Of a DNA stretch of 64,000 nucleotides, positions 22,449 to 53,889 are shown piece by piece. Source of the DNA: a virus; the IMG/VR virus record IMGVR_UViG_3300012357_000001, positions 1 to 64,000 of that record; one strand, given 5' to 3'. The translations under genes and the position numbers were made by a program. Each line of letters begins with the position of its first letter. Within the stretch, counting starts at the first letter, position 1. The notes below the pieces were generated by a model, which saw only the letters and a list, made by a program, of their open reading frames with translations, was not told the origin of the DNA and ran no database searches.

Positions 22449-22712
22449 ATGCGCAGGCAGGATGTGGACCGCACCGTCGCGGCGATGGAGACGCTGCTGG
22501 AGTCCGGCGTCGAGCAGGTCGGTGTGCGCCGGGTGCTGCGGCTGCTCGGCCGCGACGTGCCCGACCGCGAGGGCGCACCAGAACCGCAGCCACGGCTCGA
22601 CCCGCGGGCGGATCCGATAACCGGCTGCCTGCCGGTGACAGCACAGGGAGGCCGGAATGACGGCTCAGGCAAGGAAGAGCACCGGGTCCGCCAAGGCGGC
22701 TTCCGCGGCTAA
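22449..22712 (+). CDS. possible small protein
   Basis: ATG 22449. High GC3 only in the first 40 or so codons. Overlaps the next gene by 56 nt. Confidence 0.3.
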   Translation: MRRQDVDRTVAAMETLLESGVEQVGVRRVLRLLGRDVPDREGAPEPQPRLDPRADPITGCLPVTAQGGRNDGSGKEEHRVRQGGFRG

Positions 22713-22866
22713 GGCCAAGAAGGCGCAGCCCGAGCTCGAGCCCACGCACCGGGTGATCCGGGAGATCGTGATCGACGGCGTTCCGTTCGCGGTCGACGAC
22801 CTCGTGGCCCTGGACGGGCTGAACGCGGCCGAGCTGGAGAGCCACGGCTACGTGCTGAAGGTGTGA
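22657..22866 (+). CDS. small protein with Lys/Ala-rich N-terminus
   Basis: Track ORF preceded by cacagggagg (22642-22651). Last + strand gene before the strand switch. Confidence 0.5.
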   Translation: MTAQARKSTGSAKAASAAKAKKAQPELEPTHRVIREIVIDGVPFAVDDLVALDGLNAAELESHGYVLKV

Positions 22867-22873
22867 ACGACGA

Positions 22874-22943
22874 GCTCCCCGGGCGGGTCTCGAACCCGCT
22901 CCCTCCGCGGCGCGCACCGCTTCGGGCCTCCAACTGCCGGGGA
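22874..22943 (-). other. tRNA-like element (acceptor stem + T arm, no canonical anticodon arm)
   Basis: On the - strand, TCCCCGG...GCGGG-TTCGAGA-CCCGC-CCGGGGA-G: a 7-bp acceptor pairing and a 5-bp T stem with a TTCGAGA loop. Lies between convergent genes. Confidence 0.4.
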
Positions 22944-22957
22944 CTGCAGCCTGCTGC

Positions 22958-23935
22958 TTACAGGGCACCCTGTTCGACCAGGTGCTCCCTGACCATGGCG
23001 TAATTGTCCGCGATGGCGTCCAACTCCACCCGCTCTCGTCCTTCGCGGTCTAGACGCACCTGGCGCAGGTCGTCGTCCAGGTGCTCGCGGATCTTCCCGT
23101 CCACCAGGTCGGTCAGCACCTGGGGCTCCAGCGCGTCCAGCTCCCAGCAGTCGGTACCGTACTGCTCGACGTAGCCGTCGAACCGGCTGTCGGTGGCCTT
23201 GGCGTAGTTGGGCGGCGGGTTGTACTGCTCAACCTGGTCCATCGTCAGCGCGATGCGCTCGACGTAGCACCGGCTGCCGAACAGTGCCAGCCGCTCCTGG
23301 ATGTCCCGGGGGATGTCGAGCCCGGTCGGGTCGTGGTCGCCCAGGTACAGGATCCGGGTCTTCACGCTGTCCCGCTCGAACCTCTTCAGCCGCAGGGCGG
23401 CGTCGTGGATCAGCGAGTGCGAGGGCGAGCCCTTGCACGCGGTGTAGCTGACGTCCAGCGGCGCCGCCGCACGGGCGATGACGTCGACCAGCGCGTCCTT
23501 CTCCACCCAGGCCTCCACGTGCTCGGGCTGGCCGTCCCAGTGGGTGATGCCGTACTGCTGCGCGATCGAGTTGACCGCACGCTCGGGGCTGGACCATCCG
23601 AAGTCGCCACCGGCCGACGCCCGGCCGCGGTCCTCGATGTGGTCCCAGTCGACGAGGCCGGAGACACGGCCGTCGGCGATCAGGTCGCCGAGCCACTTGT
23701 AATTCTGCTGGCAGTTCTTGGTGCCGGTGCCGTCCGGGTTGCCGGGGGTCCGCTTGCCAGCGGTGAAGTAGCGCTCATCGGGGAACGCGTCGGTGGCGAT
23801 GAACCGGTAGTAGAGCTGGCGCAGCGTCAGCCGCAGCCCCTGGTCCGCATACTGGTCGCAGATAGCGTCGGCGGCCTGCACGACCGCCAGTCCGGCGGGG
23901 GTGAACGACCGCATCTCATATCGGATCTTGCTCAT
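22958..23935 (-). CDS. Spo11 / topoisomerase VI subunit A-like protein (5Y-CAP + Toprim), orphan
   Basis: Three motifs in canonical order: LTLRQLYYRF (aa 37-46), AWVEKDALV (aa 142-150) and YLGDHDPTGLDI (aa 197-208). Start-associated motif at 23942-23953. Confidence 0.7.
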   Translation of the reverse strand: MSKIRYEMRSFTPAGLAVVQAADAICDQYADQGLRLTLRQLYYRFIATDAFPDERYFTAGKRTPGNPDGTGTKNCQQNYKWLGDLIADGRVSGLVDWDHIEDRGRASAGGDFGWSSPERAVNSIAQQYGITHWDGQPEHVEAWVEKDALVDVIARAAAPLDVSYTACKGSPSHSLIHDAALRLKRFERDSVKTRILYLGDHDPTGLDIPRDIQERLALFGSRCYVERIALTMDQVEQYNPPPNYAKATDSRFDGYVEQYGTDCWELDALEPQVLTDLVDGKIREHLDDDLRQVRLDREGRERVELDAIADNYAMVREHLVEQGAL

Positions 23936-23954
23936 GTGTGTCTTCCCTGATCTC

Positions 23955-24251
23955 TCAGTACGTCAGCCGGTAGGCCTTGGCCACGACCGCCCTGATAATG
24001 CGCTCCGTCGCGTCATTCGTATATTCGGTCCGCGGTCCGCATTCCACCGACCGCGAGCCGTACCAGCCGAGCCACTCGCGCACCCGGCTCTGCACCTGGC
24101 CGCGCTCCATGTACTCCGCAGGCCCGTACATCACGGCGTATTCAGCCTGGTCTGCGCCGCCCGTTGCGTTCACCAGCGCATCCCAGTAGATCGCCATCAG
24201 GCAGCCCAGGCTGAGCTGCTCGCGCACCTGGATCGTTGCGAAGTTCGTCAC
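23955..24251 (-). CDS. hypothetical protein
   Basis: Track ORF. GTG start overlaps the upstream stop (GTGA). Confidence 0.5.
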   Translation of the reverse strand: MTNFATIQVREQLSLGCLMAIYWDALVNATGGADQAEYAVMYGPAEYMERGQVQSRVREWLGWYGSRSVECGPRTEYTNDATERIIRAVVAKAYRLTY

Positions 24252-24832
24252 GACGTCGCCTCCGACGTGTTGTGGAACGTGGCGTACAGGTACGCCGCGA
24301 TCCCGTCGTCGTAGGCCTCGCGCTCCGAATCCAGCTTGTACGTGGGGCGCTGGTATGCGTTGGCGGCGTCCCTGATATCGCCGGGGCCGTAGCCGTGCTT
24401 GGTGTGCAGCTTGCGCGCGTAGACGAAGCCGTCATCCCACGCGCCCTTCGGCGCCACGGTGAACTCCGCCTTGAACTGCTCGGCTGGCATGCCCTCGTAG
24501 CCGGTGCCGGTCTGCGTGCGGATCACGACGCGGCCCGCGTACTGGGACGCGGCCCACACGTAGTCCTGCGGATCGGCGTTGCGGCGGTAGCGCATTCCGA
24601 CTTCGAGGTGCCTGGTATCCGTCATGATCTTCCTGTCTTCCCTGATCGTTACTTCTTGGCCCGGCGGGCGGGATCGGGCCGGGGTGAACTCGGCTTCGAA
24701 CTGCTCGACAGGCATGCCCATCCAGCCGGTCTTCGTGTGGACCAAGACGCTTCCGTCGCCCTTCGATGTGAGCCATACGTATTCGTGCGGCTCCGCGTTG
24801 CGACGGTACCTGCCTAGTTCTAGATCCGTCAT
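24248..24832 (-). CDS. protein with internal tandem duplication (possible second start at 24625)
   Basis: ATG 24832 is M14 of the track ORF. Two copies of about 55 aa (MTDLELGRYRRNAEPHEYVW... and MTDTRHLEVGMRYRRNADPQDYVW...), each preceded by the TCAGGGA motif. Confidence 0.6.
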   Translation of the reverse strand: MTDLELGRYRRNAEPHEYVWLTSKGDGSVLVHTKTGWMGMPVEQFEAEFTPARSRPPGQEVTIREDRKIMTDTRHLEVGMRYRRNADPQDYVWAASQYAGRVVIRTQTGTGYEGMPAEQFKAEFTVAPKGAWDDGFVYARKLHTKHGYGPGDIRDAANAYQRPTYKLDSEREAYDDGIAAYLYATFHNTSEATS

Positions 24833-24861
24833 GATCTTCCCTGTCCCTGATCTTGGTGTAT

Positions 24862-24878
24862 CTGATGACAACTACAAC
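24862..24878 (-). promoter_or_regulatory. class-1 promoter-like box, variant (GTTGTAGTTGTCATCAG)
   Basis: -10-like TGTAGT followed by the conserved TGTCATCAG, 30 nt upstream of ATG 24832 and right after the stop of 24872..25201. Confidence 0.5.
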
Positions 24879-25201
24879 TTAGCAGACTCCCCGGCCTTGG
24901 CGGAAGGGTACTTCCACCCGGATCCGTAGGGGCCGGGGATGCCCCGGCGAAGCCAGCTGTCCACCTGCTCGATGTCGAACCACCGGTAGCCGCGCGGCGA
25001 GCCGTCGACCTTGTGGGTGATATCCACAGGCTGTGGAAAAGCCTCTCCGGCCGCGTTCTTGGTGCCGCGGTGCCACCAGTCCCGGATCCGTCGGCGGTCC
25101 AGCGGCGGGTCGATGGCGTAGCGCTCAGACAGGATGGCCGCCAGGCCCTGGAATCCGGCCCTGCCGTCCTTCTCCTCCCACAGCCTGCCGACGGGCGACA
25201 T
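24872..25201 (-). CDS. possible excisionase/MerR-like winged-helix DNA-binding protein
   Basis: Track ORF with RBS aggagaggag upstream. The C-terminal pattern YRWFDIEQVDSWL is reminiscent of Xis/AlpA-type HTH proteins. Weak call. Confidence 0.4.
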   Translation of the reverse strand: MSPVGRLWEEKDGRAGFQGLAAILSERYAIDPPLDRRRIRDWWHRGTKNAAGEAFPQPVDITHKVDGSPRGYRWFDIEQVDSWLRRGIPGPYGSGWKYPSAKAGESAKL

Positions 25202-25228
25202 CGCACCGTCTCCTCTCCTACACGGGGG

Positions 25229-25258
25229 CAGGGCCGCCGCCTGGCGGCGGCGACCCTG
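25229..25258 (-). terminator. terminator-like hairpin after the DUF932-like gene
   Basis: 8-bp stem GCCGCCGC/GCGGCGGC extended by CAGGG/CCCTG, 16 nt after stop 25274-25276. No clear U tract. Confidence 0.5.
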
Positions 25259-25273
25259 CGGTCAACTACTAGG

Positions 25274-26530
25274 TTATCGCCGGACGGAGACGAGCTCCAG
25301 GGCGGGAACCGCGAGGCGCTCGACCTCGTAGGCCCGGTCCGGGTCCTCCAGCGTCTGCGCGAAGGCGGTGATCGCGTTGGCGACACCGCCAGCGGTCGGC
25401 TGGCCGGACAGGATGAAGAAGTCGAGGACCGACTTCGACTCGTCGGCGGTGAAGCCGAGTCCGGTGCAGACCTTCGGCACGACCTCGGTCGGGCTGGCGA
25501 TCGTGACGGCGGCCTTCTCCTCGAAGCCCGTGATCATGCTGGCCAGGTAGTCGACGGTCAGCCACTGCGAGACCGCGTCGGAGGTCTCCGACTTGATCAG
25601 CTGACCGGCCGCGCGGACCGTGCCCAGCGAGGGGCGGATGACGCCCTCGGACAGGACGCGGCCGAGGTGGACCTTGCGGATGCCCTTGCGGACGTCGGTC
25701 CAGCCGTTGGTGCAGCGGACCAGGCAGACCACGGGGGTCAGGTTGTAGGCGCCGGAGCCGGTCTCGGAGTTGTCGAAGTCCAGGCCCATGTAGGCCAGGG
25801 GCTCGTCGCCGTGGTTGAAGATGTGGTGGTCGCCGTACTGGCGGCGCAGCGCGGTCAGGTCGCGGTGTCCGGCGCGGCGCGGGCCGTTGTCGGTGCCGCC
25901 GCTGCCGTCGAACGGGCTGCGGTAGCCGTCCAGCAGGCCCTCGGCGCGGGCGTAGACCTCGGGGAACTCGAACCGGACGCGCATCCGGGTCTCGCTCAGG
26001 TCCGAGACGTTGACGATCGGCTGCACACCGGCGGCCTGGATGCCCTGCGTGACGGCCATCAGCATGTCGAGGTTGTCCATCGACAGGTTGAACCGGTCGG
26101 ACAGGAACGCGCGGGCCACACCGGGCTCGCCAGCGTCGCCGCGGAACAGCCGCAGCAGGAAGCTGCGGTCGTCGGCCGCGTGCAGCAGGGTGCCGTCGGC
26201 GCCCTTGTTGCCGTGCAGCCATCCGTTGACGTTGCCGTCGATCAGGTCGTTGCGGCCCGCCTCGCGCAGCTTGCGGAAGTAGGTCGTGCCGATGCCCAGC
26301 TTGTCGGCCAGACCGCGGTCGGCGATGTCCGTGAGCGAGTAGGTGCCCGCCGCGGAGGTGACGCCCTCCTCGGTGACCTCGGCGACGGTGCTGGCGACCA
26401 CGAGCTGGCCGTTGCGGCTCCAGACCGAGCGGGCCGGGGCCACGACGTCGAGCTTGTGCGCCTTCTGCGAGTTGAGGATCTCGAGCAGTTCGGCGGCGGA
26501 GGCGTTGCGGGCGGTGAGCTGTACGGTCAT
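25274..26530 (-). CDS. DUF932-like phage/plasmid protein
   Basis: ATG 26530 is M27 of the track ORF. The pattern LDFDNSETGSGAY...VVCLVRCTNGW matches my recollection of the DUF932 core. Confidence 0.65.
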   Translation of the reverse strand: MTVQLTARNASAAELLEILNSQKAHKLDVVAPARSVWSRNGQLVVASTVAEVTEEGVTSAAGTYSLTDIADRGLADKLGIGTTYFRKLREAGRNDLIDGNVNGWLHGNKGADGTLLHAADDRSFLLRLFRGDAGEPGVARAFLSDRFNLSMDNLDMLMAVTQGIQAAGVQPIVNVSDLSETRMRVRFEFPEVYARAEGLLDGYRSPFDGSGGTDNGPRRAGHRDLTALRRQYGDHHIFNHGDEPLAYMGLDFDNSETGSGAYNLTPVVCLVRCTNGWTDVRKGIRKVHLGRVLSEGVIRPSLGTVRAAGQLIKSETSDAVSQWLTVDYLASMITGFEEKAAVTIASPTEVVPKVCTGLGFTADESKSVLDFFILSGQPTAGGVANAITAFAQTLEDPDRAYEVERLAVPALELVSVRR

Positions 26531-26569
26531 CTTCCCTGATCTCCTTGATCCGGGGCCGCTGCGGCCCCA

Positions 26570-26590
26570 CTGATGACAACTATACCCGGT
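26570..26590 (-). promoter_or_regulatory. class-1 promoter-like box (ACCGGGTATAGTTGTCATCAG)
   Basis: One of three identical 21-bp copies. -10-like TATAGT. 40 nt upstream of ATG 26530, with a 7-bp-stem hairpin (26552-26568) in the leader. Confidence 0.6.
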
Positions 26591-26669
26591 CTTCGGCCGT
26601 TCACACAAGCTGGCACGCAGAAAGGGCCCTCTGCGGCGGCAGATGACCCTTCCCGCACCCCGTTAGTAC

Positions 26670-26735
26670 CCCGGCCGCGCGGTTGTAGCTCTCTCCAGTG
26701 GGGGAGTGGAGATAGCCGGTTCACGCGCGGCCGGG
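26670..26735 (-). terminator. large compound hairpin after the SSB-like gene
   Basis: 12-bp outer stem (26670-26681 pairs with 26724-26735) enclosing an inner 6-bp hairpin, 12 nt after stop 26747-26749. Confidence 0.5.
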
Positions 26736-26746
26736 TGCTTCGCAGC

Positions 26747-27790
26747 CTACTGGGCCCAGGGCGGCGGCGGCGCGCCCTGCGGTCCGGCCTGCTCGGGCTG
26801 CGCCGGAGCGCCCTGGCCGTTCCACGGCGCGTTGCCGGGGGCGGGCGCAGGCGCGGGCGCCGCGGGCTGCTGCGGCTGGGGCTGGCCCTGCTGCGGCTGC
26901 TGCGGTGCCTGCTGCTGCGGCTGGTAGGGCGCCGGGGCCGCGCCGTAGCCCGGGGCGGGCTGCTGCGGCTGCTGCATCGGGTTCCACGGCTGCGCGGCGG
27001 GCGCCTGCGGTGCCTGCTGCGGAGTCGCCCACGGCGGGACAGCCGCGTTGCCGCCGGGCTGGGCACCGTTGGGGGCTGCTGCAGGCGCTGGCGTCTGCCA
27101 CGGGTCAACGGGCGCGGGCGCTGCGGCGGGCTGCTGCGGGCCTCCGTAGCCCGGCTGGGGCTGCTGCCACGGATCCTGCTGCGGCGGCGCGTAGCTCGGC
27201 TGGCTGTAGTCCTGCTGCGGCTGCGGGGCGTAGCCCTGCTGCGGCTGCGCGTACTGAGGCTGCGCGTACTGCGGCTGCTGAAACGGCGACTGCCCGTAGC
27301 CGGGCTGCTGCCCATAGCCGGGCATCGCGGCGGGCTGCTGCGGCTGGTAGGTCGGCCAGGTCGTCGGGGCGCCGGGGCGCGGCGGGCGCACGTCGCGCAC
27401 CTTGTTGCGCTGCACGCCCTCGTACTCGTCGAGCACGATCTTCAGCAGCACCGGCTTGCCGACCATCGCCTGTGCGATCTGCTCTTCCGGAGGGTTGCTC
27501 TTGACCCAGTCGGCCGGGATCCCCATGGCCTCCAGGTGCCGGAACATGATCCCGAGCGACTGGGCCGCCGACGGGCCGTCCGTGGTGATCGTCATCGGGA
27601 ACCGGATCTGCGCGCGTCCGGCGTTGGGACCGGTCGTCACGCGGAACCGGACGTCCCACTGTCCCTTGGCGCCGTCCTTGGTCCGGCCCCACGTGCTCGA
27701 CTCGACCACGGCGTCGACCTCATTGGTGTCGTAGACGAAGATCGAGCTGTCGGCCTGGCCGTACAGCGAGTTGAAGTCGTACTGACCCAT
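26747..27790 (-). CDS. ssDNA-binding-like protein with a Pro/Gln-rich tail of about 210 aa
   Basis: Track ORF. Globular N-terminal domain of about 135 aa directly downstream of the Sak4-type ATPase (typical module order), followed by PQ/Y/G low complexity. Confidence 0.55.
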   Translation of the reverse strand: MGQYDFNSLYGQADSSIFVYDTNEVDAVVESSTWGRTKDGAKGQWDVRFRVTTGPNAGRAQIRFPMTITTDGPSAAQSLGIMFRHLEAMGIPADWVKSNPPEEQIAQAMVGKPVLLKIVLDEYEGVQRNKVRDVRPPRPGAPTTWPTYQPQQPAAMPGYGQQPGYGQSPFQQPQYAQPQYAQPQQGYAPQPQQDYSQPSYAPPQQDPWQQPQPGYGGPQQPAAAPAPVDPWQTPAPAAAPNGAQPGGNAAVPPWATPQQAPQAPAAQPWNPMQQPQQPAPGYGAAPAPYQPQQQAPQQPQQGQPQPQQPAAPAPAPAPGNAPWNGQGAPAQPEQAGPQGAPPPPWAQ

Positions 27791-27793
27791 GAT

Positions 27794-28570
27794 CTAGTTC
27801 CTTCTTCCCTGGAGAACCTGCGTGAGCATGGTTTCCGCTGTGAATCCGGGGTGAGAGGGATCCCCGATCTTCATGGTGTAGGGCAGGCGTCCTCCCAGGC
27901 GCTCGCCGGTCTCGTACTGCGGATGCGGGCCGATGAACATCAGCCGGTTGCCGTCCCGCTCGGCCCCGAGATATCCGAGCACGTCCACGTAGTACGGCAG
28001 GTAGTCCTGGGCCTGGCCCTGGACCATCGGGCGCCAGCGGCCCTCCTTCAGGTGCGTACCGGCCACGAAGGTCATCGTCCACATCGGCTTGACCGGGTGT
28101 GTGATCAGGTCGCGGTACTGGCGGACCATCGAGGACACCTGACGGAGCAGCGCGTTCCAGTGGTCCCTCTCGATCTTGCCGTTACCGGCCAGGTCGTCGA
28201 TCACCCGCTGCTGGACCTCGGTGACCGAGTCCATCGAGCAGGAGTTGAACGGGTGCTGGCCGGAGTTCAGGACCCGGTAGGTGGCGGACACCGTCCGTGC
28301 CTCGCGCACGAGCACGATCGCGGTGTCCCAGCTGCCGTCCGGCCGCGGCGGGGGCTCGCGCAGCGGATCCCAGTAGACCTTGCGGGACGGGGTCCAGTAC
28401 GAGGAGCCCTCGACGTCGAGCACGAGGCGCGGCGTCGGGCCGGAGTCGGCGAAGGTGGACTTGCCAGCCTTCGGCAGCCCGTGCACCAGGAACGAGAGTC
28501 CCTGGGCCCTCCGCGGCTGCGGCGTTGCAGGCGCGGGGGCGTGCACCTGAGCGTACTGCTGGGCTGTCAT
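27794..28570 (-). CDS. RecA-like AAA ATPase (Sak4-type recombination protein)
   Basis: Walker A motif HGLPKAGKST, Walker B-like LVLDVEG. Size and the neighbouring SSB and exonuclease genes are typical. Confidence 0.7.
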   Translation of the reverse strand: MTAQQYAQVHAPAPATPQPRRAQGLSFLVHGLPKAGKSTFADSGPTPRLVLDVEGSSYWTPSRKVYWDPLREPPPRPDGSWDTAIVLVREARTVSATYRVLNSGQHPFNSCSMDSVTEVQQRVIDDLAGNGKIERDHWNALLRQVSSMVRQYRDLITHPVKPMWTMTFVAGTHLKEGRWRPMVQGQAQDYLPYYVDVLGYLGAERDGNRLMFIGPHPQYETGERLGGRLPYTMKIGDPSHPGFTAETMLTQVLQGRRN

Positions 28571-28809
28571 CCGACGACCGCGTCCCAGATCGCGAGGCAG
28601 CCGATCCCCATGCCGAACACGAGCGCCAGGGTGAACACCGCGTGGGAGAACGTCGTGATGCTTTCGTTGATCCTCTTGTGCTTGGACTCGCGGATCGCGT
28701 CGCGCTCCGCGATCCTGTTGGCCGTTTCCATGTGACGGGCCGCCTGCTCGCCGAGGATGCCCTCAACGAGGGTGCGCGGGACGCGGGGGGTGTTCGATGA
28801 TTGCTCCAT
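28567..28809 (-). CDS. small C-terminally membrane-anchored protein
   Basis: Track ORF. TM segment AVFTLALVFGMGIGCLAIW. ATGA and TGATG coupling to neighbours. Confidence 0.45.
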   Translation of the reverse strand: MEQSSNTPRVPRTLVEGILGEQAARHMETANRIAERDAIRESKHKRINESITTFSHAVFTLALVFGMGIGCLAIWDAVVG

Positions 28810-29786
28810 CAGACCTTTGCCATCTCTTCCCTGATCGTACGGAGTGCGTCGTCCCTGTAGTACTCGTAGGGGTCCGCCTGCCGGAATCTTCCACTGCGGA
28901 CAAGACTAGCAGACCAGTCGCTGCCGTCGTCCATCATCGGGCAGATTTCTCGGAAAGTGCACCACCACTTGCAGTCGTTCGGGATCTGCGTCGGATACAT
29001 CTGCGAGCGCTGTACCTGGTCGATCACGGCCAGGTCGCCGCCGCTGCGCTGGTATGCGTCGTCGAGCAGCGCGCGTGCCGCCATGATCTGCGACGCCACC
29101 GTCTGCACCTTCAGCAGCGTCGCGTGGACCTCCTCCGGGGTGTAGAGGAACGGGTCCCGCCGGTAGTACGGCGGATTGGCGCGAGCGGTCCGCTTCACCC
29201 TGCGCAGCGTGTCGATCGTGCCCCCCGCGATCTTCGGTCCGTCGGGCGGCGACGCGAGGTGCTGCACCAGCGTGTAGAACCTCATCTGCGGATTCATCCG
29301 CAGCTGCTCGGCGACCTCGAAGTTGGACCCGGTCTTGTAGTCGCGGAACAGCAGCGCGCCGTCGGAGATCCGCTCGGACACCTGGTCCATCCTGGCCCGC
29401 AGCTGCACACCGGGAACGCCCGGCAGGTCGACCCGCACGTCCGTCTCGGTGGCGACGGTCCGGAAGTCGGCGTCCACGCCCTCGGTGGCCAGCCACTCCA
29501 GGTAGCCGGACACCATCGCGTCGGCCATGTCCGCCTCGGTGGCCAGGTCGGACGCAAACTCGGGAGTGCGGTTCGCCTCGATCTTGTATAGCAGCGCGAG
29601 CACCGCGAGCGGGTCGAGCTGGTAGCCGTAGTAGGCCTCCAGCGCGGTGTGTACCCGAGTGCCGAGCTGGCGGGCGCCGGTCGGCGCTTCGTCGGCTGGC
29701 ACGAATCCCAGGTAGTACGTCAGGTACCAGTTCCTGCGGCACCTGGTCCACGCGTAGATCTCGGACTGCGAGATCATCGTCGTCAT
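28809..29786 (-). CDS. PD-(D/E)XK exonuclease, Cas4/RecB-like with Fe-S cysteines
   Basis: DYKTG motif, one N-terminal Cys (WTRCRRNW) and a C-terminal CKWWCTFREIC cluster. Confidence 0.8.
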   Translation of the reverse strand: MTTMISQSEIYAWTRCRRNWYLTYYLGFVPADEAPTGARQLGTRVHTALEAYYGYQLDPLAVLALLYKIEANRTPEFASDLATEADMADAMVSGYLEWLATEGVDADFRTVATETDVRVDLPGVPGVQLRARMDQVSERISDGALLFRDYKTGSNFEVAEQLRMNPQMRFYTLVQHLASPPDGPKIAGGTIDTLRRVKRTARANPPYYRRDPFLYTPEEVHATLLKVQTVASQIMAARALLDDAYQRSGGDLAVIDQVQRSQMYPTQIPNDCKWWCTFREICPMMDDGSDWSASLVRSGRFRQADPYEYYRDDALRTIREEMAKV

Positions 29787-29995
29787 CTCTGCTCTCCCTT
29801 CAACACTTCGCCGTCGATTACCCGGACACGGGGACGTACGGCCACGGACATCTCGCCGCGGGCGATCTCGGCCGACAGCTCGGAGACGAACGGGATCTCG
29901 ATCACGAGTTCGCCGTCGCGGTAGGCGACCTCGACGCCGCTGTAGGGCCGCGGGAAGGTGATCTCCAGCACCGCCCCGGCCTCTGCGCTACTCAC
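29783..29995 (-). CDS. hypothetical protein
   Basis: 70-aa track ORF coupled to both neighbours by overlaps. Confidence 0.45.
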   Translation of the reverse strand: MSSAEAGAVLEITFPRPYSGVEVAYRDGELVIEIPFVSELSAEIARGEMSVAVRPRVRVIDGEVLKGEQR

Positions 29996-31865
29996 CGTCT
30001 CCGCCGATCAGCCAGCGCAGTATGTCGGCGTCGCGGATGACCTCTGCGGCCCGCTCGCCCTTCTCCTCGCCGAGCTGGAAAAGCCGCTCCTCGACCGTTT
30101 TCGGGGTGATGGAGTAGACGACGCGGATGCCGCCCTGCGCCATGCCCTCCTGCCCGATGCGGTCGATGCGGGCGATCTTCTGCTCGCGTGAGCGCCAGCT
30201 CGGATCCGGCTGCATGAAGTAGATCGTGTGCGCCGCAGTGAGCGTGATGGACTCCGCACCGGCCGCGGTGATGAAGATCACCCGGCAGTCGCCTCGTTGG
30301 AACCAGGTGACCGCCTGATCCATGGCGTCCGCGCTCATCCCTCCGACGATCTTGCAGTGCGTGATCTTCTTCACGGCGAGGGCCTTCTCCGCGAGCGCGA
30401 CCAGCTGCGGCGAGTTGGCGGCCACGACCAGCTGGCCATCCTCGTCCTCCAGGAAGTCGAGCAGGTCGGCCACCTTGGATGACGGCGCGACCATCCTGGG
30501 ATTCGCCGTGGTGAACCCGTCGGAGTCCTCCCCCTCGACGACCTCCAGCATGGACGACGCCAGCTGGCACAGGCGGGAGAACGACACCAAGTCGTTCTGC
30601 GCGACGACCAGCCGACCCTCGAGCTCGACCATGGCCTGCTTGGCGATCTTGTCGTAGGTGCGCTTCTGCGCCGGGGCCATGGCCGGGTAGCGGAACACGG
30701 GCTCGAGCCGCTGCGGCAGGAACGGCAGCGCGATGGCCCGCGGGATGCGCCGAATCAACGGCTGCACGAAGCTGTGGAAGGTGTCCGCGCTGTCCGGCCG
30801 GATGCCGAGCACGGTGGACCCGCCGTGGAAGTTGATCTCCTTGACCGCGAACAGGTCCAGGTACCGGCTGCGGGACGGCGCCGTCGCGATGTCGAGACCG
30901 TGCAGCAGCGGCCACAGCTGGCCGATGTTGTCGGCGATCGGGGTCCCCGTGGCCAGCCAGCGGTACTCCGCCTGGTGCAGCAGCCACCACAGCGCGCGGG
31001 TCTGCTTCGAGCGCGCGTCCTGCATCCGGTGCGCCTCATCGGCGATCACCGTGCGCCAGGGTCGTTCGGTCAGGTTCAGATCCTTCGGGTGCACCTCGCA
31101 GCGGGCCGCCGCGATGCCGTCGTCGATGCCGCCGCACACCTTGCACCGGATGAACCGGACGCCGGGGTACGCCTCGAGCCGGGTGTGCGCGCGCACGTTC
31201 GGCCAGCCCACGATCCACACGTCCGCGTCGGTGCGCTCGATCGCCTGGCGTCGGCGCAGCGCCGTGCCGTCCACCACGACCGTGCGCAGCTCCGGAGCCC
31301 AGTTCGCGATCTCGCGCTCCCAGTTGCGGATCGCCGCGACCGTGCACACGACCAGCGCGGGGAAGGGGCCGGAGCCCATGGGCCCGAGCGCGGCGGCGAG
31401 CTGCAGCGCCCGGATCAGCTGCGCGGTCTTGCCCTGGCCCTGCTCGTCGCCGAGGATGCCGCGTCGGCGGTCGGCCAGGTAGGCGGCCCCGCCGCGCTGG
31501 AACGGATAGAGGCGGCGCGGGCGGCCGTCCGGGAACGGGACGCTGGCCTCGTCGAGACCGTCGAGGATCACAGCGACGTCGCCGTCCTCCTGGCACGCGC
31601 GGTCGTCGAGCGCGCCGCGCAGCGACCAGGCGTGCAGCACGTCCTCGTACGCCTCCTTCGACCACGCCTGTAGCTCGGGTCCGCGGTCCAGCTGCTGGCC
31701 GGACCACAGCATGTGCATCGTGACGACCGTCGCCCAGGACAGCGGGGCGTGCCAGGTCCCGGCCTTCTTGTCGAAGTTGCATCCGGGGATCTGGGTGGCC
31801 AGGTGGTTCTCCACCGTGCTGCACCCGATTGTGATCTTGCCGTCGATGATCTCGGTCCACGCCAT
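29988..31865 (-). CDS. SNF2-family helicase
   Basis: ATG 31865 is M23 of the track ORF. Motifs LGDEQGQGKT, VIADEAHRMQ and the C-terminal helicase motif RIDRIGQ. Contains a Cys/His insert, CKVCGG...CEVH. Confidence 0.85.
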   Translation of the reverse strand: MAWTEIIDGKITIGCSTVENHLATQIPGCNFDKKAGTWHAPLSWATVVTMHMLWSGQQLDRGPELQAWSKEAYEDVLHAWSLRGALDDRACQEDGDVAVILDGLDEASVPFPDGRPRRLYPFQRGGAAYLADRRRGILGDEQGQGKTAQLIRALQLAAALGPMGSGPFPALVVCTVAAIRNWEREIANWAPELRTVVVDGTALRRRQAIERTDADVWIVGWPNVRAHTRLEAYPGVRFIRCKVCGGIDDGIAAARCEVHPKDLNLTERPWRTVIADEAHRMQDARSKQTRALWWLLHQAEYRWLATGTPIADNIGQLWPLLHGLDIATAPSRSRYLDLFAVKEINFHGGSTVLGIRPDSADTFHSFVQPLIRRIPRAIALPFLPQRLEPVFRYPAMAPAQKRTYDKIAKQAMVELEGRLVVAQNDLVSFSRLCQLASSMLEVVEGEDSDGFTTANPRMVAPSSKVADLLDFLEDEDGQLVVAANSPQLVALAEKALAVKKITHCKIVGGMSADAMDQAVTWFQRGDCRVIFITAAGAESITLTAAHTIYFMQPDPSWRSREQKIARIDRIGQEGMAQGGIRVVYSITPKTVEERLFQLGEEKGERAAEVIRDADILRWLIGGDGE

Positions 31866-31899
31866 CGTCGTGCCTCTCTTCCCTGATCTTCCGGCTGGC

Positions 31900-32364: not shown

Positions 32365-32365
32365 G

Positions 32366-35526: not shown

Positions 35527-35550
35527 CACCAGCGTTCAGGGAGGATTGCG

Positions 35551-38053: not shown

Positions 38054-38068
38054 GGGACCGGATGAGAG

Positions 38069-46868: not shown

Positions 46869-46883
46869 CCCATCCCACCGGCG

Positions 46884-46918
46884 CGGCCCCGCAGCAATTT
46901 GCGGGGCCGTTCTGTGTT
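46884..46918 (+). terminator. intrinsic terminator
   Basis: 10-bp stem CGGCCCCGCA/TGCGGGGCCG, 6-nt loop, then TTCTGTGTT. 16 nt after stop 46866-46868. Confidence 0.7.
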
Positions 46919-46932
46919 GCGTCCGGGCGTGG

Positions 46933-46953
46933 ACCGGGTATAGTTGTCATCAG
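46933..46953 (+). promoter_or_regulatory. class-1 promoter-like box (ACCGGGTATAGTTGTCATCAG)
   Basis: Identical 21-mer, 24 nt after the terminator hairpin at 46884-46909. Confidence 0.6.
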
Positions 46954-47249
46954 TAGGACACGCCGGGGCCCCTCGGGGCACCAGGAAGCCGAGCGAGTAG
47001 CGCCCGATGAACTCGGGGTCTAGCGAAAAGGGATCTTCGATCCCCTGCTGCGGAGCGACGCAGGTCCAAATCCTGCGCACGGCGCGCAACCGACAAGTCC
47101 GTAGCCAATCGGAGCAGCCGGGCCGCCGTACAAGGACCCAATGGCACGGAGGCGCGCGAGCGCCAAACCACCAGCAACCAGGGGACGTACGGCGGTGCAC
47201 AGCAGATCAGGCGGGCACCACGCCCGCCGACCGTTCAGGGAGGATCACC

Positions 47250-48369: not shown

Positions 48370-48621
48370 ATGGCCAGCTACACACACGAGCAGCAGCGCG
48401 CCCTACGGAGCCTGGACCTCCCGGCTGACACCAAGGTGCGCGACCGCAACGGGTACCAGTGGCGGCGCGGCGGCGGCACCGGGCGGTTCTGGTACCGGGA
48501 GTTCAAGCTGCAGTCGTACGCCGCCAGCTGGCGCGAGCTCCTCAAGAGTGGACCGCTTGAGCGCTGGGACGCCGAGAACGAGACCTGGTCGGCCATCGAG
48601 CCGGGAGGGGAAGACCGATGA
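48370..48621 (+). CDS. hypothetical protein
   Basis: Track ORF. Confidence 0.5.
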   Translation: MASYTHEQQRALRSLDLPADTKVRDRNGYQWRRGGGTGRFWYREFKLQSYAASWRELLKSGPLERWDAENETWSAIEPGGEDR

Positions 48622-49037
48622 ACCTTCTCAACGTACTCACCCCGGCGCAGCTCGCGGTGCTCCAGGCCGTCGAGGACGCGTCGCACGTCACGCGCCCGGA
48701 ACGGCCGGAGCTGAAGGTCGGTGACACGGTCATCGCCTCGGGCTCCGGTGTCCGTGGACGCACCACGACCGTCACGAAGATCGGCCCCAAGTGGATCACC
48801 ATCGGCCAAGGGACCGCGACATCGCGGTTCGACCGACAGACCTGGCGCGGTGGGCACGGGTACGGCATCGGAGCCTCCATCCGCACTCCGGAGCAGGTCG
48901 CCTACGACCAGCGGATCGCCACAGCTAGGAGTCGGCTGACCAATGCCGGTCTGCGGATCCCTTACTTGGCCGACGTCTCCGACGGCCGACTGCTAGCCGT
49001 CGCCGCGCTACTGGAGCTGTTGGATGAGGAGGTCTGA
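48618..49037 (+). CDS. hypothetical protein
   Basis: Track ORF with ATGA coupling. Confidence 0.5.
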   Translation: MNLLNVLTPAQLAVLQAVEDASHVTRPERPELKVGDTVIASGSGVRGRTTTVTKIGPKWITIGQGTATSRFDRQTWRGGHGYGIGASIRTPEQVAYDQRIATARSRLTNAGLRIPYLADVSDGRLLAVAALLELLDEEV

Positions 49038-49352: not shown

Positions 49353-49702
49353 CCGGCCGACGGAGGGTCCGGATCCGGATCACCTGCGTCAACTGCCTGC
49401 GTGCGGATCAAGCGCACCGAGGCCACGGCTGGTGCCAGGCCTGCTACATGCGCTGGTCTCGCGCCGGACGGCCCGACACCGGACCGCCCGCGCCCTACGA
49501 GGTGCAGCTGGTCGACGACGTCGCCATTGAGCTCGCCGTGAAGGGCGCGCGCCCGTGGCTCACCCCGCGCGAACGCCGCATCGCCGTCGCCGAGCTGCGT
49601 CTGCGCGGCCTGTCCCTGAACGCCATCGCCGACCGGCTCGGCTGCACCCAGCGCACCGTCGTGCGCCACGTATCCGCGATCAAGAAGGGGGCGTACGCAT
49701 GA
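49349..49702 (+). CDS. DNA-binding protein: zinc finger plus sigma70-region-4/LuxR-like HTH
   Basis: GTGA coupling. CVNCL...HGWCQACY, then LTPRERRIAVAELRLRGLSLNAIADRLGCTQRTVVRHV. Confidence 0.6.
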   Translation: MTGRRRVRIRITCVNCLRADQAHRGHGWCQACYMRWSRAGRPDTGPPAPYEVQLVDDVAIELAVKGARPWLTPRERRIAVAELRLRGLSLNAIADRLGCTQRTVVRHVSAIKKGAYA

Positions 49703-50793: not shown

Positions 50794-50796
50794 CGG

Positions 50797-50817
50797 ACCG
50801 GGTATAGTTGTCATCAG
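50797..50817 (+). promoter_or_regulatory. class-1 promoter-like box (ACCGGGTATAGTTGTCATCAG)
   Basis: Identical 21-mer, 4 nt after stop 50791-50793 and 30 nt upstream of ATG 50847. Confidence 0.6.
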
Positions 50818-50846
50818 AAGTATCGGAAACCAGGTCAGGGAGAGAC

Positions 50847-51308
50847 ATGAAGGTCACGCGCACACGCACGCACAGGAAGATCGCGGCCGTCATAGCGGCT
50901 GCCGTCGCGGCAACCGTTTTCACGATGTACGAGACGTCCGGGAACAGCGACGCCGGTCCACCGGTGCAGGTGCAGGCCGCCCCGGCGCAGCCCGTCGATC
51001 CGGCCGCGGTGCTGGCGTCAATGCACGTCCCGACCGACGGTCGGATCTCCGGCCCGATCGACACCGAGGGCGACCAGTACGCCAGCGGCTCGTTCGCCGA
51101 CGGCGAGCAGGTCACGGTGTATACGTACACATACACATCCGCCCAGGCCATGGCCGCCGACGCCGAGTACTTCAAGATCCCCGGACCCGGCAACGCGGAC
51201 AGGGTGCTGCTCGGCTCCAGATTCATCGTCGTGGTGACCGGCGTCGGCAGCGCCTTCCCGGAGAACCCGGCCACGCTGGCGAAGGAGTCCGGCACGACTC
51301 TTGACTAG
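50847..51308 (+). CDS. secreted or membrane-anchored protein
   Basis: M14 of the track ORF. N-terminal basic stretch plus hydrophobic helix (KIAAVIAAAVAATVF). Has its own promoter-like box and start motif. Confidence 0.55.
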   Translation: MKVTRTRTHRKIAAVIAAAVAATVFTMYETSGNSDAGPPVQVQAAPAQPVDPAAVLASMHVPTDGRISGPIDTEGDQYASGSFADGEQVTVYTYTYTSAQAMAADAEYFKIPGPGNADRVLLGSRFIVVVTGVGSAFPENPATLAKESGTTLD

Positions 51309-51314
51309 GCCTGC

Positions 51315-51329
51315 TAGACTTGTCATCAG
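51315..51329 (+). promoter_or_regulatory. class-1 promoter-like box, variant (TAGACTTGTCATCAG)
   Basis: -10-like TAGACT plus TGTCATCAG, 7 nt after stop 51306-51308 and 37 nt upstream of ATG 51366. Confidence 0.5.
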
Positions 51330-51365
51330 TAGACAGTTCAGGGAAGATCAAGAAGGAAGGCCCCC

Positions 51366-51934: not shown

Positions 51935-52135
51935 ATGGATCGCTGTTGGTGCGGATACGAGGCGGCCGGATCCACCGTGGCCGGTCGCCTGGCGCGGTGG
52001 AACGCGGCGGCCGACGCGGTGAACCGCGCGGTGTACGGAGCCAACGAAGCCCAGGCGCGCGAGGAGCAGGAAGCCTGGGACGCGATGGCGGACCACGATG
52101 ACCCCGAGTACGTGAAGCGCGTGGAGGCGACATGA
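51935..52135 (+). CDS. hypothetical protein
   Basis: Track ORF. Confidence 0.45.
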   Translation: MDRCWCGYEAAGSTVAGRLARWNAAADAVNRAVYGANEAQAREEQEAWDAMADHDDPEYVKRVEAT

Positions 52136-52485
52136 CGAAGATCAATGTGGAGAGGGAGATCACCACTACCACGCTGACGGTGCTGCTCCCCGCAGACACG
52201 CCGCAGTTCGACAGGCCGTACAGCAACGAAAAACTGCAGCTGGTCAAGCTGCAGTTGTCGTACACCACCATCACCCAGGGAGAGTCGTGGGCTCTCTCAG
52301 ACGGACGTGTCGTCGGCTACGTCATCCGCAAGGACGGCAGCCTGGGCCAGCCCAGGGACAACGCTCTGTATGTCCACATCAACGGCCAGCCGAGCAATGC
52401 GTGGCCGGACTGGGCAAAGGCCCTGGCCGAGGAACTCGCACCGAGGCCGGGCTCCGGCCCTGTCAGATCGAGGAGCACGTCGTGA
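52132..52485 (+). CDS. hypothetical protein
   Basis: Track ORF with ATGA coupling. Confidence 0.5.
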   Translation: MTKINVEREITTTTLTVLLPADTPQFDRPYSNEKLQLVKLQLSYTTITQGESWALSDGRVVGYVIRKDGSLGQPRDNALYVHINGQPSNAWPDWAKALAEELAPRPGSGPVRSRSTS

Positions 52486-52739: not shown

Positions 52740-52984
52740 CGCAGTGCCCGTGGAAGATCCACTGGGCGGCCGGTCAGGAGCACACCACGCAGTGCGGCAG
52801 GAACAGGCACAGCGACCAGCACCACCGGGGCAGGCATCCCAACCCGGACTCCTCGACCGGCTACACGGTGATCCAGTGGATCGCCGGTGACCGCCGCGAG
52901 TACACCGGCGAGTGGCCCGGCCCGTGCGTCGAGACGCCTGGGTGCGTCCTGCACACCCGGCACAAGGGAAGGTGTGCGACGTGA
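52736..52984 (+). CDS. hypothetical Cys/His-rich protein
   Basis: GTGA coupling. In frame with track ORF 52307..52984. Confidence 0.45.
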   Translation: MTQCPWKIHWAAGQEHTTQCGRNRHSDQHHRGRHPNPDSSTGYTVIQWIAGDRREYTGEWPGPCVETPGCVLHTRHKGRCAT

Positions 52985-53469
52985 TCGAGATCATCGCGTT
53001 CCTGACCGCGCAGTACGACGAAGAGGAAGCCGCCGCGCGTGCGTCCGCCGAAGCCGACCCGGCGCCGTGGACCGCCTACGCCGTCGGCGAGCAGAGCACC
53101 GGCCTGGGAACCGGCCTGCGCAGCGGCCACGGCTACGGGTCCGTCTCCGCGGCCGACGACGTCGACCTGTGGGACTGCGAGGGCAGCAGCATGCTGTGCA
53201 TGACGGCGCCGACGGCGCGGCACACCGCGATGCACGACCCGGCCCGGGTATTCGTCGAACTGGAAGTCAAGCGGGCTCGGCTCAAGCTGCATAGCCCCGA
53301 CACACGCAGGATGCCGTCACGCTGCCTGGTGTGCCTGAGCGACCGGGCCGGACGCATGTCCGACGACTGGGAGCCGGACGTGTGGCCGTGCAAGACGGTC
53401 CTGTTGGACGCGGCCGTCTACGTCGGCCGACCCGGCTACCAGAAGGAGTGGATCATCGATGACGACTGA
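52981..53469 (+). CDS. DUF6221-like protein
   Basis: GTGA coupling. The pattern FLTAQYDEEEAAARA...HDPARVFVELEVKRARLKLH...CLVC...WPCKT matches my recollection of this actinobacterial/phage family. Confidence 0.5.
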   Translation: MIEIIAFLTAQYDEEEAAARASAEADPAPWTAYAVGEQSTGLGTGLRSGHGYGSVSAADDVDLWDCEGSSMLCMTAPTARHTAMHDPARVFVELEVKRARLKLHSPDTRRMPSRCLVCLSDRAGRMSDDWEPDVWPCKTVLLDAAVYVGRPGYQKEWIIDDD

Positions 53470-53767
53470 CGTGGACGCGCGAACCCGGCTGCGGATGGCC
53501 CGGTACGGGGTTGCGGGCAACCCCGACGCCCTGAGGATCTACGAGCTGGCGAACGCAGCGCTGGCCGAGCAGGACGCCGAGATCTACCGGTTGAAGGATG
53601 CCCTGGCGGCTCTGGCGGACCAGGCCGTGCTGCACGCCACCGGAGCGCAGTGCGAGGTGATCATCGCGTCCGGGGTGGTGGACAACGAGACGCCTGGTAC
53701 GATCTTGCGCTCGACCGATGACACGAGGAGCTGGGAGCTCACAGGCGGTGGGTGGCAGCTGAGGTGA
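53459..53767 (+). CDS. hypothetical protein
   Basis: Track ORF. Last gene before the terminator at 53785-53804. Confidence 0.5.
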   Translation: MTTDVDARTRLRMARYGVAGNPDALRIYELANAALAEQDAEIYRLKDALAALADQAVLHATGAQCEVIIASGVVDNETPGTILRSTDDTRSWELTGGGWQLR

Positions 53768-53784
53768 GGATGGATACCAGCGAG

Positions 53785-53804
53785 GCCCGGACTACGGTCC
53801 GGGC
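53785..53804 (+). terminator. terminator hairpin identical to 38069-38088 (weak T tract)
   Basis: Same 20-bp hairpin (23-bp identity including the GAG flank), 18 nt after stop 53765-53767, followed by CTTCGTCGT. Confidence 0.55.
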
Positions 53805-53824
53805 CTTCGTCGTGCCTGGTGGCA

Positions 53825-53841
53825 TATCATTGTCCGCAGTA
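53825..53841 (+). promoter_or_regulatory. class-1 promoter-like box, variant (TATCATTGTCCGCAGTA)
   Basis: -10-like TATCAT plus TGTCCGCAG, 21 nt after the terminator hairpin and about 50 nt upstream of ATG 53890 (lysis/late unit). Confidence 0.45.
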
Positions 53842-53889
53842 CGCTTGTCCCGAATCGACCTTGTCGTCAGCCGTCAGGAGATCTAGATC

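Follow-up and report, generated by a model that had tools for sequence, protein, structure and literature searches.

A start-associated sequence upstream of early genes in an uncultured actinobacteriophage lineage

A 12-nucleotide (nt) sequence with the consensus G(A/T)TCAGGGA(A/G)GA recurs immediately upstream of gene starts in a 64,000-nt stretch of phage DNA, positions 1 to 64,000 of the IMG/VR record IMGVR_UViG_3300012357_000001 (hereafter the window). This 12-mer lies close to start codons, on the sense strand only and at early genes only. It is under purifying selection that includes positions unable to pair with 16S rRNA, and it does not make a stronger Shine-Dalgarno (SD) site. It is a third, sequence-distinct example among actinobacteriophage start-associated sequences (SAS), which have been known since 2011 (PMC3203893). 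We tentatively favour recognition of the 12-mer on the mRNA by a trans-acting factor; the evidence for this reading and for its rivals is weighed below.

Occurrence and conservation of the 12-mer

The sequence GWTCAGGGARGA is present in 10 exact copies in the window against 0.02 expected, and none of 100 shuffled sequences reached 10. One further copy carries a single mismatch (GGTCAGGGAGGA at 39121), and two to four degenerate copies exist besides. All 11 robust sites (10 exact and one with a single mismatch) are in sense to the downstream gene and lie 0–19 nt before its start, the spacing given by a first-pass annotation of the window. That annotation had proposed a start-associated motif at 16 sites, and all 16 of the sequences it listed are present where it placed them. 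Thirteen hold as sites; 22642 (ACAGGGAGG) and 27804 (CCAGGGAAG) are weaker variants that are conserved in relatives, and 53873 is an ordinary SD. Alignment of the start-proximal copies gives a 12–13-nt element, aG(A/T)TCAGGGA(A/G)GA, whose columns are numbered here from -3 to +8, with G at -3, W at -2, T at -1 and C at 0. G(-3) is found in 15 and T(-1) in 13 of 17 aligned copies (information of 1.0 and 1.5 bits, respectively), the flanks outside -4 to +8 carry no information, and the flanks of 33 CAGGGA copies away from starts are flat. With two mismatches allowed, the 12-mer sinks into noise (39 matches against 13.5 expected), so that weaker variants need to be judged by conservation.

Shorter forms give the same result. 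TCAGGGARG has 13 matches in the window against 1.24 expected, and in an unbiased hexamer scan of positions -30 to -1 of all starts CAGGGA ranks first (15 genes against 0.99 expected). Statistics were recomputed on the gene calls of the collection itself (102 genes) to avoid a bias from our own gene caller, and these independent calls confirm every motif-associated start. On them, 12 of the 26 occurrences of TCAGGGA lie within 23 nt upstream of a start on the same strand, where about 0.5 would be expected (p = 2e-14). It precedes 12 of 59 early genes and none of 43 late genes (p = 0.001), in agreement with the earlier impression, gained by eye, that virion genes lack it. A further 5.8 kb, beyond the window, gave no copy of the motif. 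Among the exact 9-mers, two are not associated with a start (6497 on the - strand and 41874 on the + strand); the one at 6497, the sole 9-mer in antisense orientation, is not at a gene boundary. The gaps upstream of motif genes measure 381, 216, 136, 75, 75, 57, 41, 34, 19, and -1 nt, six of the 10 exceeding 50 nt. In gaps of 41–381 nt the 12-mer is always at the start-proximal end, and its proximity to starts therefore does not merely reflect a lack of other non-coding room. Eleven of 12 motif genes begin with ATG compared with 60 of 90 others in the window alone (p = 0.10), which within a single genome is only a trend.

Relatives were obtained as six IMG/VR contigs with a helicase 54–84% identical to that of the window, and three further loci came from a search with the terminase, one of which lies on the 72.9-kb contig of L002 (loci are cited by such handles where needed). 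The IMG/VR relatives include UViG_3300003320_000592, 3300046817_000745, 3300025915_000004, and 3300036794_000042. The hexamers CAGGGA, TCAGGG, and AGGGAA again top the upstream list in each close relative, and the search among related phages that had been suggested earlier rediscovered the signal independently in L001, L002, L004, and L006. In the Streptomyces phage Intolerant, used as a control, the top upstream hexamer is AAGGAG and the annotated starts are without the motif; nothing comparable is seen among the upstream hexamers of the late-gene locus L032. Loci retrieved by the proteins at 51366 and 45236, unrelated phages with only a common domain, served as negative controls, and unrelated loci have essentially no start-proximal copies. 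Footprinting was done on four intergenic ortholog sets (helicase, a 418-amino-acid (aa) gene, a 169-aa gene, and Prim-Pol) from relatives whose helicase is 79–84% identical. Ten of the 12 columns from -3 to +8 are 100% identical in all four sets compared with 20–60% in neighbouring columns; of the other two, W differs in one set and R in a different set. Conservation is equally high in the core and in the unpairable flank (G at -3, T at -1). Where two copies overlap the 3' end of an upstream coding sequence, rare codons are kept in all relatives (AGA 2%, AGG 10%, GAA 11%, GGA 14%). A census that pooled the window with nine loci and allowed up to one mismatch gave 53 sites, 48 of which have a coding start within 24 nt, ATG in 45 of the 48. 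The distant relative L005 keeps (A/T)TCAGGGAGA at three genes only and has a weaker flank elsewhere, its start motif being reduced to AGGGAGA.

That the copies are functionless, either leftovers of duplicated or recombined intergenic cassettes or products of chance, is very improbable. Longer similarity does join the leaders at 35.49k and 41.65k (33 nt, 88%) as well as three 26-nt promoter repeats, and relatives have other genes attached to the cassette at 51.3k. However, the number of copies far exceeds the 0.02 expected, no information lies outside -4 to +8, the 12-mer forms a sharp island of conservation in diverged orthologous spacers, and rare codons are retained at embedded sites; moreover, 12 bases are too short for homogenisation by gene conversion.

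Shine-Dalgarno core, upstream element and candidate readers

The 3' end of actinobacterial 16S rRNA is ...GAUCACCUCCUUUCU-3'. It can pair with AGGGAGG and not with the G-W-U-C part of the 12-mer; the earlier statement that the flank is unpairable therefore stands, and it concerns positions (-3 and -1) that are informative and fully conserved. The same 3' end is shown in an earlier study (PMC3203893). Pairing gains nothing from the motif: the best anti-SD duplex in -30 to -1 has -8.68 kcal/mol for motif genes and -8.60 kcal/mol for others on our gene calls, and -8.75 versus -9.05 kcal/mol on the independent calls (p = 0.70). The GATCAGGGAAGA (GGGAAG) flavour pairs weakly, at -5.5 to -8 kcal/mol, and the strongest SDs of the genome (GGAGGT types, virion genes included) have heterogeneous flanks. 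In the pooled census the GGGAGG flavour is mostly 5–9 nt from the start, which is SD spacing, whereas the GGGAAG flavour is found at 0–20 nt, often with a separate SD. Six GGGAAG copies abut the ATG and have AAGGAG or AAGGGAG about 10 nt upstream, and many others, placed 11–20 nt upstream, have another purine tract between them and the start. Thus, one and the same 12-mer can serve as the SD, stand ahead of it, or occupy the SD-AUG spacer. A plain SD site is ruled out by the conserved flank, the lack of a pairing gain, and the 0–20-nt spacing of one flavour, and the 12-mer is more than an ordinary ribosome-binding site (RBS).

A purely cis-acting cassette is a rather unlikely alternative. The ribosome itself would be contacted by the whole 12-mer, whether at a standby site, through a ribosomal protein (bS1 or another), or through parts of 16S rRNA other than the anti-SD, and initiation would be boosted without a dedicated factor. 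The SD core and the canonical 5–9-nt placement of the GGGAGG flavour are consistent with this, as are the ATG start at 45 of 48 sites and the preference for first genes behind promoters, where the sequence is unconstrained. Anti-SD pairing, on the other hand, is no better than at other genes and is weak for GGGAAG, the strongest SDs lack a common flank, and a spacing of 0–20 nt with a separate SD at many sites is hard to square with a fixed contact. Another Streptomyces phage also does without the motif, although it need not share its host with the present phage.

About half of the motif sites follow a second repeat, TTGTCNNCAG, which has 11 matches in the window against 1.29 expected and 39 copies in the window plus seven loci. 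A 26-nt version, GGACCGGGTATAGTTGTCATCAG, is present in three copies on the + strand with an inverted match at 26.58k. The repeat is typically preceded by tgCTAnnn, and from these letters we infer an extended -10 (TGnTANNNT; TAGACT, TAGTCT, TATAGT, TAATGT) with a conserved discriminator and a predicted transcription start site (TSS) at the final AG. The 418-aa gene has a -35-like TTGTGT, TTGTGG, or TTGACA 17–18 nt upstream of the -10 in four genomes, and a related form, TAG(G/A)CT-GNTGACA-AG, is found at 39.1k and in L001, L002, and L006. A scan of the window for the canonical sigma-70 consensus gave no matches; since the promoters are without a consensus -35, the companion element was defined by repeats and footprinting. 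Most copies of TTGTCNNCAG are 6–60 nt upstream of a motif copy, so that many motif copies would fall at about +6 to +30 of the predicted transcript. Several copies (23941, 24636, and 27803) are without a nearby promoter, and the gene that opens the late block (53890) combines the promoter element with no motif. A fixed -10 or a T7-type promoter (GGGAGA start) as the identity of the 12-mer was rejected, with positions -12 to -5 holding at most 0.3 bits and no phage RNA polymerase found. In the leader of the 418-aa gene, a G+C-rich hairpin (about 26551–26569, - strand) comes right after the predicted TSS; its structure is kept and its sequence differs in L002, L004, and L006 (GGGGCCGC-agc-GGCCCC, CCGCC-gca-GGCGG, and others), and it may be a 5' stabiliser or an attenuator. 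The promoter-like repeat of L005 also differs, being TAG(G)CTGTTGACAA(c/a)TA with a perfect TTGACA at 9036, 11864–11880, 13860–13880, and about 15950.

The association with promoters bears on the view that the 12-mer acts as DNA: a phage protein that binds DNA, for instance the small helix-turn-helix (HTH) protein at 49448–49702, would use it as an asymmetric operator or roadblock, and early transcription units would be shut down as by the stoperators of Cluster A mycobacteriophages. We consider this unlikely. The site is asymmetric with its orientation locked to transcription as in stoperators, many sites are 6–30 nt downstream of putative transcription starts, and an HTH/sigma-r4-like protein is encoded. 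A further point is an inverted pair at 35485–35545, CCTCCCTGA(A/C)C-N38-GTTCAGGGA(A/G)G, which brackets divergent promoters. The window, L001, L002, and L004 all have a spacer of exactly 38 nt despite diverged spacer sequence, and indels are frequent in other leaders; the spacer of L006, which has a duplicated GTTCA, is longer. Against this view, the motif stays start-proximal in large gaps, occurs inside operons without a nearby promoter (the three copies named above), incorporates an SD core, never lies antisense at gene boundaries, and has flavours whose spacing tracks SD logic.

The operon-internal junctions could also suggest a site of RNA processing, at which host RNase E or a RegB-like phage nuclease would cut between U and C, leaving mRNAs that begin with CAGGGARGA and have an altered stability or translation. 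The single invariant UC in a purine-rich and not especially structured context is compatible with such a cut. The preference of RNase E has been reported as RN↓CNU, which the 12-mer fits only partly (PMC10641625): position +3 is G and not U, and the GTTC flavour is without a purine at -2. The specificity of RNase E is moreover loose, so that 12 invariant bases would not be needed, and no RegB-like protein was detected. We therefore regard processing as quite improbable. Two further ideas were rejected. For an antisense-RNA target, the strong duplex partners are all the opposite strands of the sites themselves and there are no Rfam families. For a role of GATC (Dam), the GATC ratio of 1.03 is not globally unusual, and the GTTC and GGTC flavours are without GATC. 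The heptamer GATCATG is over-represented in the window (25 against 7.9 expected) and takes in five start codons (24625, 24832, 27790, 48370, and 53890).

The reading that we favour, with somewhat less than even confidence, is that a sequence-specific factor acting in trans recognises the 12-mer on the mRNA at the RBS and co-regulates a regulon. Action at the level of RNA, the existence of such a factor, and the direction of its effect are what we infer. A reader other than 16S rRNA is needed because the conserved identity of the cis-element is not explained by 16S pairing, and a trans-acting factor is favoured because the element may be anywhere within the ribosome footprint, yet is never more than about 20 nt from the start. 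Such placement fits an occluding or cleaving factor better than a ribosome contact that depends on geometry. G(A/T)UCAGGGA(A/G)GA would then be a lineage-specific start-associated element on the mRNA of early and replication genes, within the region covered by the 30S subunit at initiation. Its GGGARG part could serve as an SD and would do so in the GGGAGG flavour, and the invariant G-W-U-C-A flank with the exact identity of the block would most likely be read by the factor. The latter, expected to be phage-encoded (a host protein is possible), would bind or cut at the RBS and switch one regulon of about 13 genes together. Many motif genes would be the first genes behind host-type promoters (extended -10 plus TTGTCNNCAG), with transcription and translation signals combined in one cassette.

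Candidates for the factor are few. The sole RNA-related match is a Phage_ProQ_C_like protein at 48618–49037 on the + strand (PF24203, E = 3e-16); near its gene, in the right arm, an 84-aa protein resembling HTH, LuxR, and sigma-70 region 4 is encoded at 49448–49702 on the same strand. These two are the only recognisable nucleic-acid-binding candidates, and PDB sequence searches with three proteins gave no match. Several points weigh against a trans-acting factor on the mRNA. No CsrA, S1, KH, or DUF3310 domain was found among about 90 window proteins, and no factor was identified; DUF3310 has been the subject of speculation as a trans-factor in Cluster K (PMC11373665). A tblastn search of 50,697 phage records gave no homolog of the ProQ-C-like protein. 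The unpaired probability of the motif (0.46) equals that of its flanks (p = 0.82), with no common hairpin. Strand and position alone cannot strictly separate action on RNA from action on DNA.

Relation to known systems

Cluster K mycobacteriophages have 11–19 copies of GGGATAGGAGCCC located 3–9 nt before the starts of non-structural genes (PMC3203893). In these phages ATG is preferred, some conserved bases are without 16S pairing, and about half of the copies have an upstream sequence called the extended start-associated sequence (ESAS; PMC3203893). The ESAS of phage Adephagia has been interpreted as an inverted repeat together with a SigA-like promoter, and the same study called the function of the SAS unknown (PMC11373665), as did a 2025 survey of 188 Cluster K genomes (PMC12699233). 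The parallel with Cluster K drawn in the first-pass annotation holds feature by feature, as an analogy and not as membership of a sequence family. Both elements are short (12–13 nt) asymmetric repeats in about 11–19 copies, on the sense strand only, upstream of non-structural starts with ATG preferred, and both combine an SD core with positions to which 16S rRNA offers no complement. A companion containing a host-type promoter, its activity here predicted, lies upstream of about half of the copies in each case. The differences are equally clear. The sequences are unrelated (GWTCAGGGARGA versus GGGATAGGAGCCC), and a search of the window for GGGATAGGAGCCC with at most two mismatches gave one match against 1.9 expected, inside the tape-measure gene. 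The conserved non-SD part is 5' of the core here and on both sides of it in Cluster K; there are two flavours here, the placement is looser (0–20 versus 3–9 nt from the start), and several genes clearly do not use the motif as their SD. The upstream partner consists of an extended -10 and TTGTCNNCAG instead of a 17-bp inverted repeat, and the present phage lineage is unrelated, uncultured, and apparently lytic.

Cluster EF Microbacterium phages contain ten copies of GGGAAAGGACCCC, with a weakly conserved ESAS centred on GTAGAG (Jacobs-Sera et al., 2020; PMC7302621). As in the window, the motif is specific to a lineage and has an upstream element, and the GTAGAG core resembles the -10 of the TAGAGT/TAGACT type found here. 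The EF consensus is another one, its motifs are at the RBS position throughout, and a class with variable spacing has not been described; GGGAAAGGACCCC with at most two mismatches has two matches in the window against 1.7 expected, neither at a start. By most points of the operational definition of Pope et al. (2011), which also includes a place mostly at genes over 50 bp away from the upstream gene and rarity of the motif in the host genome, the 12-mer is a start-associated sequence, and it is a member of neither the K nor the EF sequence family. The control phage Intolerant (L036, MN224565) has its own repeat abutting starts, (G)GAG/GGNCGTGTAAACG directly before the ATG or GTG at 2664, 4849, 12703, 24908, and 37132, and the reverse complement GCGTTTACAC upstream of 755, 15510, 24263, and 28436. 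This looks like another lineage-specific start- or promoter-associated motif.

Other systems resemble the 12-mer in part. Cluster A stoperators (the L5 gp71 sites mentioned in PMC3203893) are likewise asymmetric repeats of 13 bp, many per genome, in short intergenic regions and with an orientation tied to transcription. Unlike the present motif, they act on DNA, are not tied to starts, lack an SD core, and are found in temperate phages that have an immunity repressor. Phage T4 encodes RegA, a repressor at ribosome-binding sites, and RegB, an endonuclease that cuts GGAG in early SD sequences. A phage factor that reads the RBS sequence of many early mRNAs and turns them off jointly, as in T4, would be the working model here by analogy; the T4 targets are short or degenerate in contrast to the 12 invariant bases described here, and no RegA or RegB homolog was found among the window proteins. 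Sites for CsrA/RsmA contain GGA in an A(N)GGA or CAGGA context overlapping the SD, and UCAGGGA holds the CA-GGA core. In contrast to CsrA sites, the motif is not presented in a hairpin loop, and no CsrA-family protein was found in the window (Pfam); to our knowledge, CsrA is generally absent from Actinobacteria.

Finding a third family, unrelated in sequence and from an uncultured soil phage lineage, shows that the phenomenon recurs across actinobacteriophages. It adds two constraints not clearly evident from the Cluster K data, namely that the motif brings no extra anti-SD pairing and that one flavour stands 0–20 nt from the start beside a separate SD. Together they point to a reader of the conserved block that is not the 3' tail of 16S rRNA. 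The SAS may be separable from the SD, being upstream of it, coincident with it, or in the SD-AUG spacer, and the motifs of Cluster K, Cluster EF, and the present lineage might be three independent cases of operators for undiscovered phage translational regulators or RBS-directed nucleases, not odd SDs; we put this forward as possible, with more doubt than belief. The division into flank and core, and into motif and SD, offers clean mutational designs for reporters, and a factor, if there is one, would be a compact and portable switch to co-regulate gene sets in Streptomyces-type hosts.

Individual sites and genome context

The motif sites, companion elements, and gene blocks are collected in Table 1.

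Table 1. Motif sites, promoter-like elements and gene blocks of the window
Position	Strand	Sequence or feature	Context
22641–22652	+	weak variant GCACAGGGAGGC	4 nt before ATG 22657; kept in L004; membership doubtful
23941–23952	-	GATCAGGGAAGA	5 nt before ATG 23935; 325-aa topoisomerase-like protein, phrog_6247; start confirmed by independent call
24636–24647	-	GATCAGGGAAGA	10 nt before ATG 24625; second copy of tandem paralog pair
24835–24853	-	GATCAGGGACAGGGAAGA, overlapping double copy	before ATG 24832; start confirmed by independent call
26530–26541	-	GATCAGGGAAGA	abuts ATG 26530; 418-aa protein, phrog_1362; separate AAGGAG upstream
27803–27814	-	variant CTCCAGGGAAGA	in last codons of AAA_24 gene; 12 nt before ATG 27790 (13 nt from GGGAAG end)
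28825–28836	-	GATCAGGGAAGA	in 3' end of PD-(D/E)XK nuclease gene; 15 nt before ATG 28809
31877–31888	-	GATCAGGGAAGA	11 nt before ATG 31865 (SNF2 helicase); GAGAGG follows
35484–35495	-	GTTCAGGGAGGA	8 nt before ATG 35475; 169-aa protein, first gene of leftward replication operon
35534–35545	+	GTTCAGGGAGGA	5 nt before ATG 35551 (Prim-Pol); inverted pair with 35484–35495, spacer 38 nt
39121–39132	+	GGTCAGGGAGGA (1 mismatch)	8 nt before ATG 39141
41653–41664	+	GTTCAGGGAGGA	7 nt before GTG 41672; 33 nt (88%) common with 35.49k leader
47233–47244	+	GTTCAGGGAGGA	5 nt before ATG 47250; far end of 381-nt gap, just after hairpin 47210–47228
50833–50844	+	variant GGTCAGGGAGAG	2 nt before ATG 50847
51336–51347	+	GTTCAGGGAAGA	18 nt before ATG 51366; second SD GAAGGAAGG in between
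24862–24871	-	TTGTCATCAG, after ctgCTAAG..TGTAG	8 nt upstream of double copy at 24853 (9 nt to GATC)
26570–26579	-	TATAG-TTGTCATCAG	-35-like TTGTGT 18 nt upstream of -10; hairpin of 5' untranslated region follows
28894–28903	-	ctgCTAGTC-TTGTCCGCAG	inside nuclease gene, 57 nt upstream of 12-mer at 28836; conserved in L001–L004, L006
35496–35505	+	TTGTCCTCAG	divergent promoter region; adjoins reverse complement of leftward motif
39074–39110	+	CTGCGGACAA and TAGG-CTGGTGACAA-G, two copies in other orientation	upstream of motif at 39121
46931–46956	+	GGACCGGGTATAGTTGTCATCAGTAG, promoter-like repeat	after terminator-like hairpin 46883–46910
50795–50820	+	GGACCGGGTATAGTTGTCATCAGAAG, promoter-like repeat	15 nt upstream of variant 12-mer at 50833 (16 nt to GTC)
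51307–51332	+	ctgCTAGACTTGTCATCAGTAG, promoter-like repeat	6 nt upstream of motif at 51336
53830–53870	+	two TTGTC(CG/GT)CAG elements	before gene 53890 (lysis/late block head), ordinary SD only
22958–35475	leftward	replication block	PolA, SNF2 helicase, PD-(D/E)XK nuclease, AAA_24, topoisomerase-like protein
35551 to about 53.8 kb	rightward	early block	Prim-Pol first
6469	+	late gene	tape measure
22058	+	late gene	holin
54346	+	late gene	lysin
58114	+	late gene	terminase
59882	+	late gene	portal

Several of these sites need comment. The start at 24625 is an in-frame internal ATG of the open reading frame (ORF) 24248–24832, which consists of two tandem paralogous units (MTDLELGRYRRNAEP... and MTDTRHLEVGMRYRRNADP...) joined in frame, with a 53-nt repeat at 24453–24505 and 24678–24730 (79% identity) and, between the units, a TAA that is out of frame and a local fall in coding potential. 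In L002 and L004 its place is taken by two genes that stand apart, each with the motif. We take ATG 24625 to be a real start because the ORF is a tandem paralog pair that exists as separate genes in relatives, and the ORF is either a true fusion or the result of an assembly indel. The arrangement at 26530, with the 12-mer abutting the ATG and AAGGAG upstream, is identical in L002, L004, and L006. The site at 27803 has the rare codons GGA, AGA, and AGG kept in relatives, and at 28825 the rare codons AGG and GAA are conserved. The cassette at 51336 is conserved in L031 and L032 with other spacers. Two proposed sites were discarded: 53873 (GTCAGGAGATC) has no core and is not conserved in L031 or L032, and an extra site, CCAGGGAGAG at 52275 before GTG 52287, was retracted as it is inside the gene 52132–52485 according to frame analysis and the independent gene calls.

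The topoisomerase-like gene (22958–23935, - strand) differs in place within the lineage. In the window it ends the leftward arm and has GATCAGGGAAGA with no promoter, whereas in L004 (4152–5129) and L006 (4161–5144) it neighbours Prim-Pol in the opposite arm and carries GTTCAGGGAGGA and a TTGTCATCAG promoter of its own; the flavour of the motif thus follows genomic context, not the gene. The gap at 46869–47249 contains the terminator-like hairpin 46883–46910 and the promoter-like repeat 46931–46956, followed by about 280 nt in which neither caller places a gene; this region before the hairpin 47210–47228 may be a long leader or a small RNA.

The phage genome is about 72 kb, of which the 64-kb window is a part, and it is known from metagenome assemblies alone. 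The same proteins are also present on the NCBI contig WNGR01000128.1 (GCA_009787515.1, 71.7 kb) and on ENA/JGI contigs. The G+C content of the window is 68%; neither tRNA genes nor Rfam families were found in it, and an isolated-phage collection contained no close DNA-level relative. The helicase and the portal protein are about 35 and 38% identical, respectively, to proteins of Micrococcus, Microbacterium, Gordonia, and Streptomyces phages, and the domains DUF397, DUF6372, and DUF6221 in window proteins are typical of Streptomyces-type actinomycetes. No match was obtained when the portal protein was used to scan reference genomes for a host or prophage. The late block, on the + strand, takes up the window from about 53.9 kb to its end and the first 22.9 kb. 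Neither an integrase nor a repressor was recognised in the window, and the phage is apparently lytic.

Some minor features were also recorded. A 413-nt non-coding gap at 38054–38466 contains two pairs of direct repeats (38097–38132 with 38338–38373 and 38268–38301 with 38372–38405; 75–82% identity); it could have a regulatory role or resemble an origin. In the independent gene calls the gene that follows begins at 38491, not at 38467. The 347-aa gene at 26747–27790 (- strand) has degenerate GCTGCTGCGGCTG-type repeats at 26866–27278, six copies of a 35-nt family, which encode a low-complexity, Gln/Pro-rich segment of the protein. The tetranucleotide CTAG is scarce in the window, with 26 occurrences against 55 expected from a Markov model.

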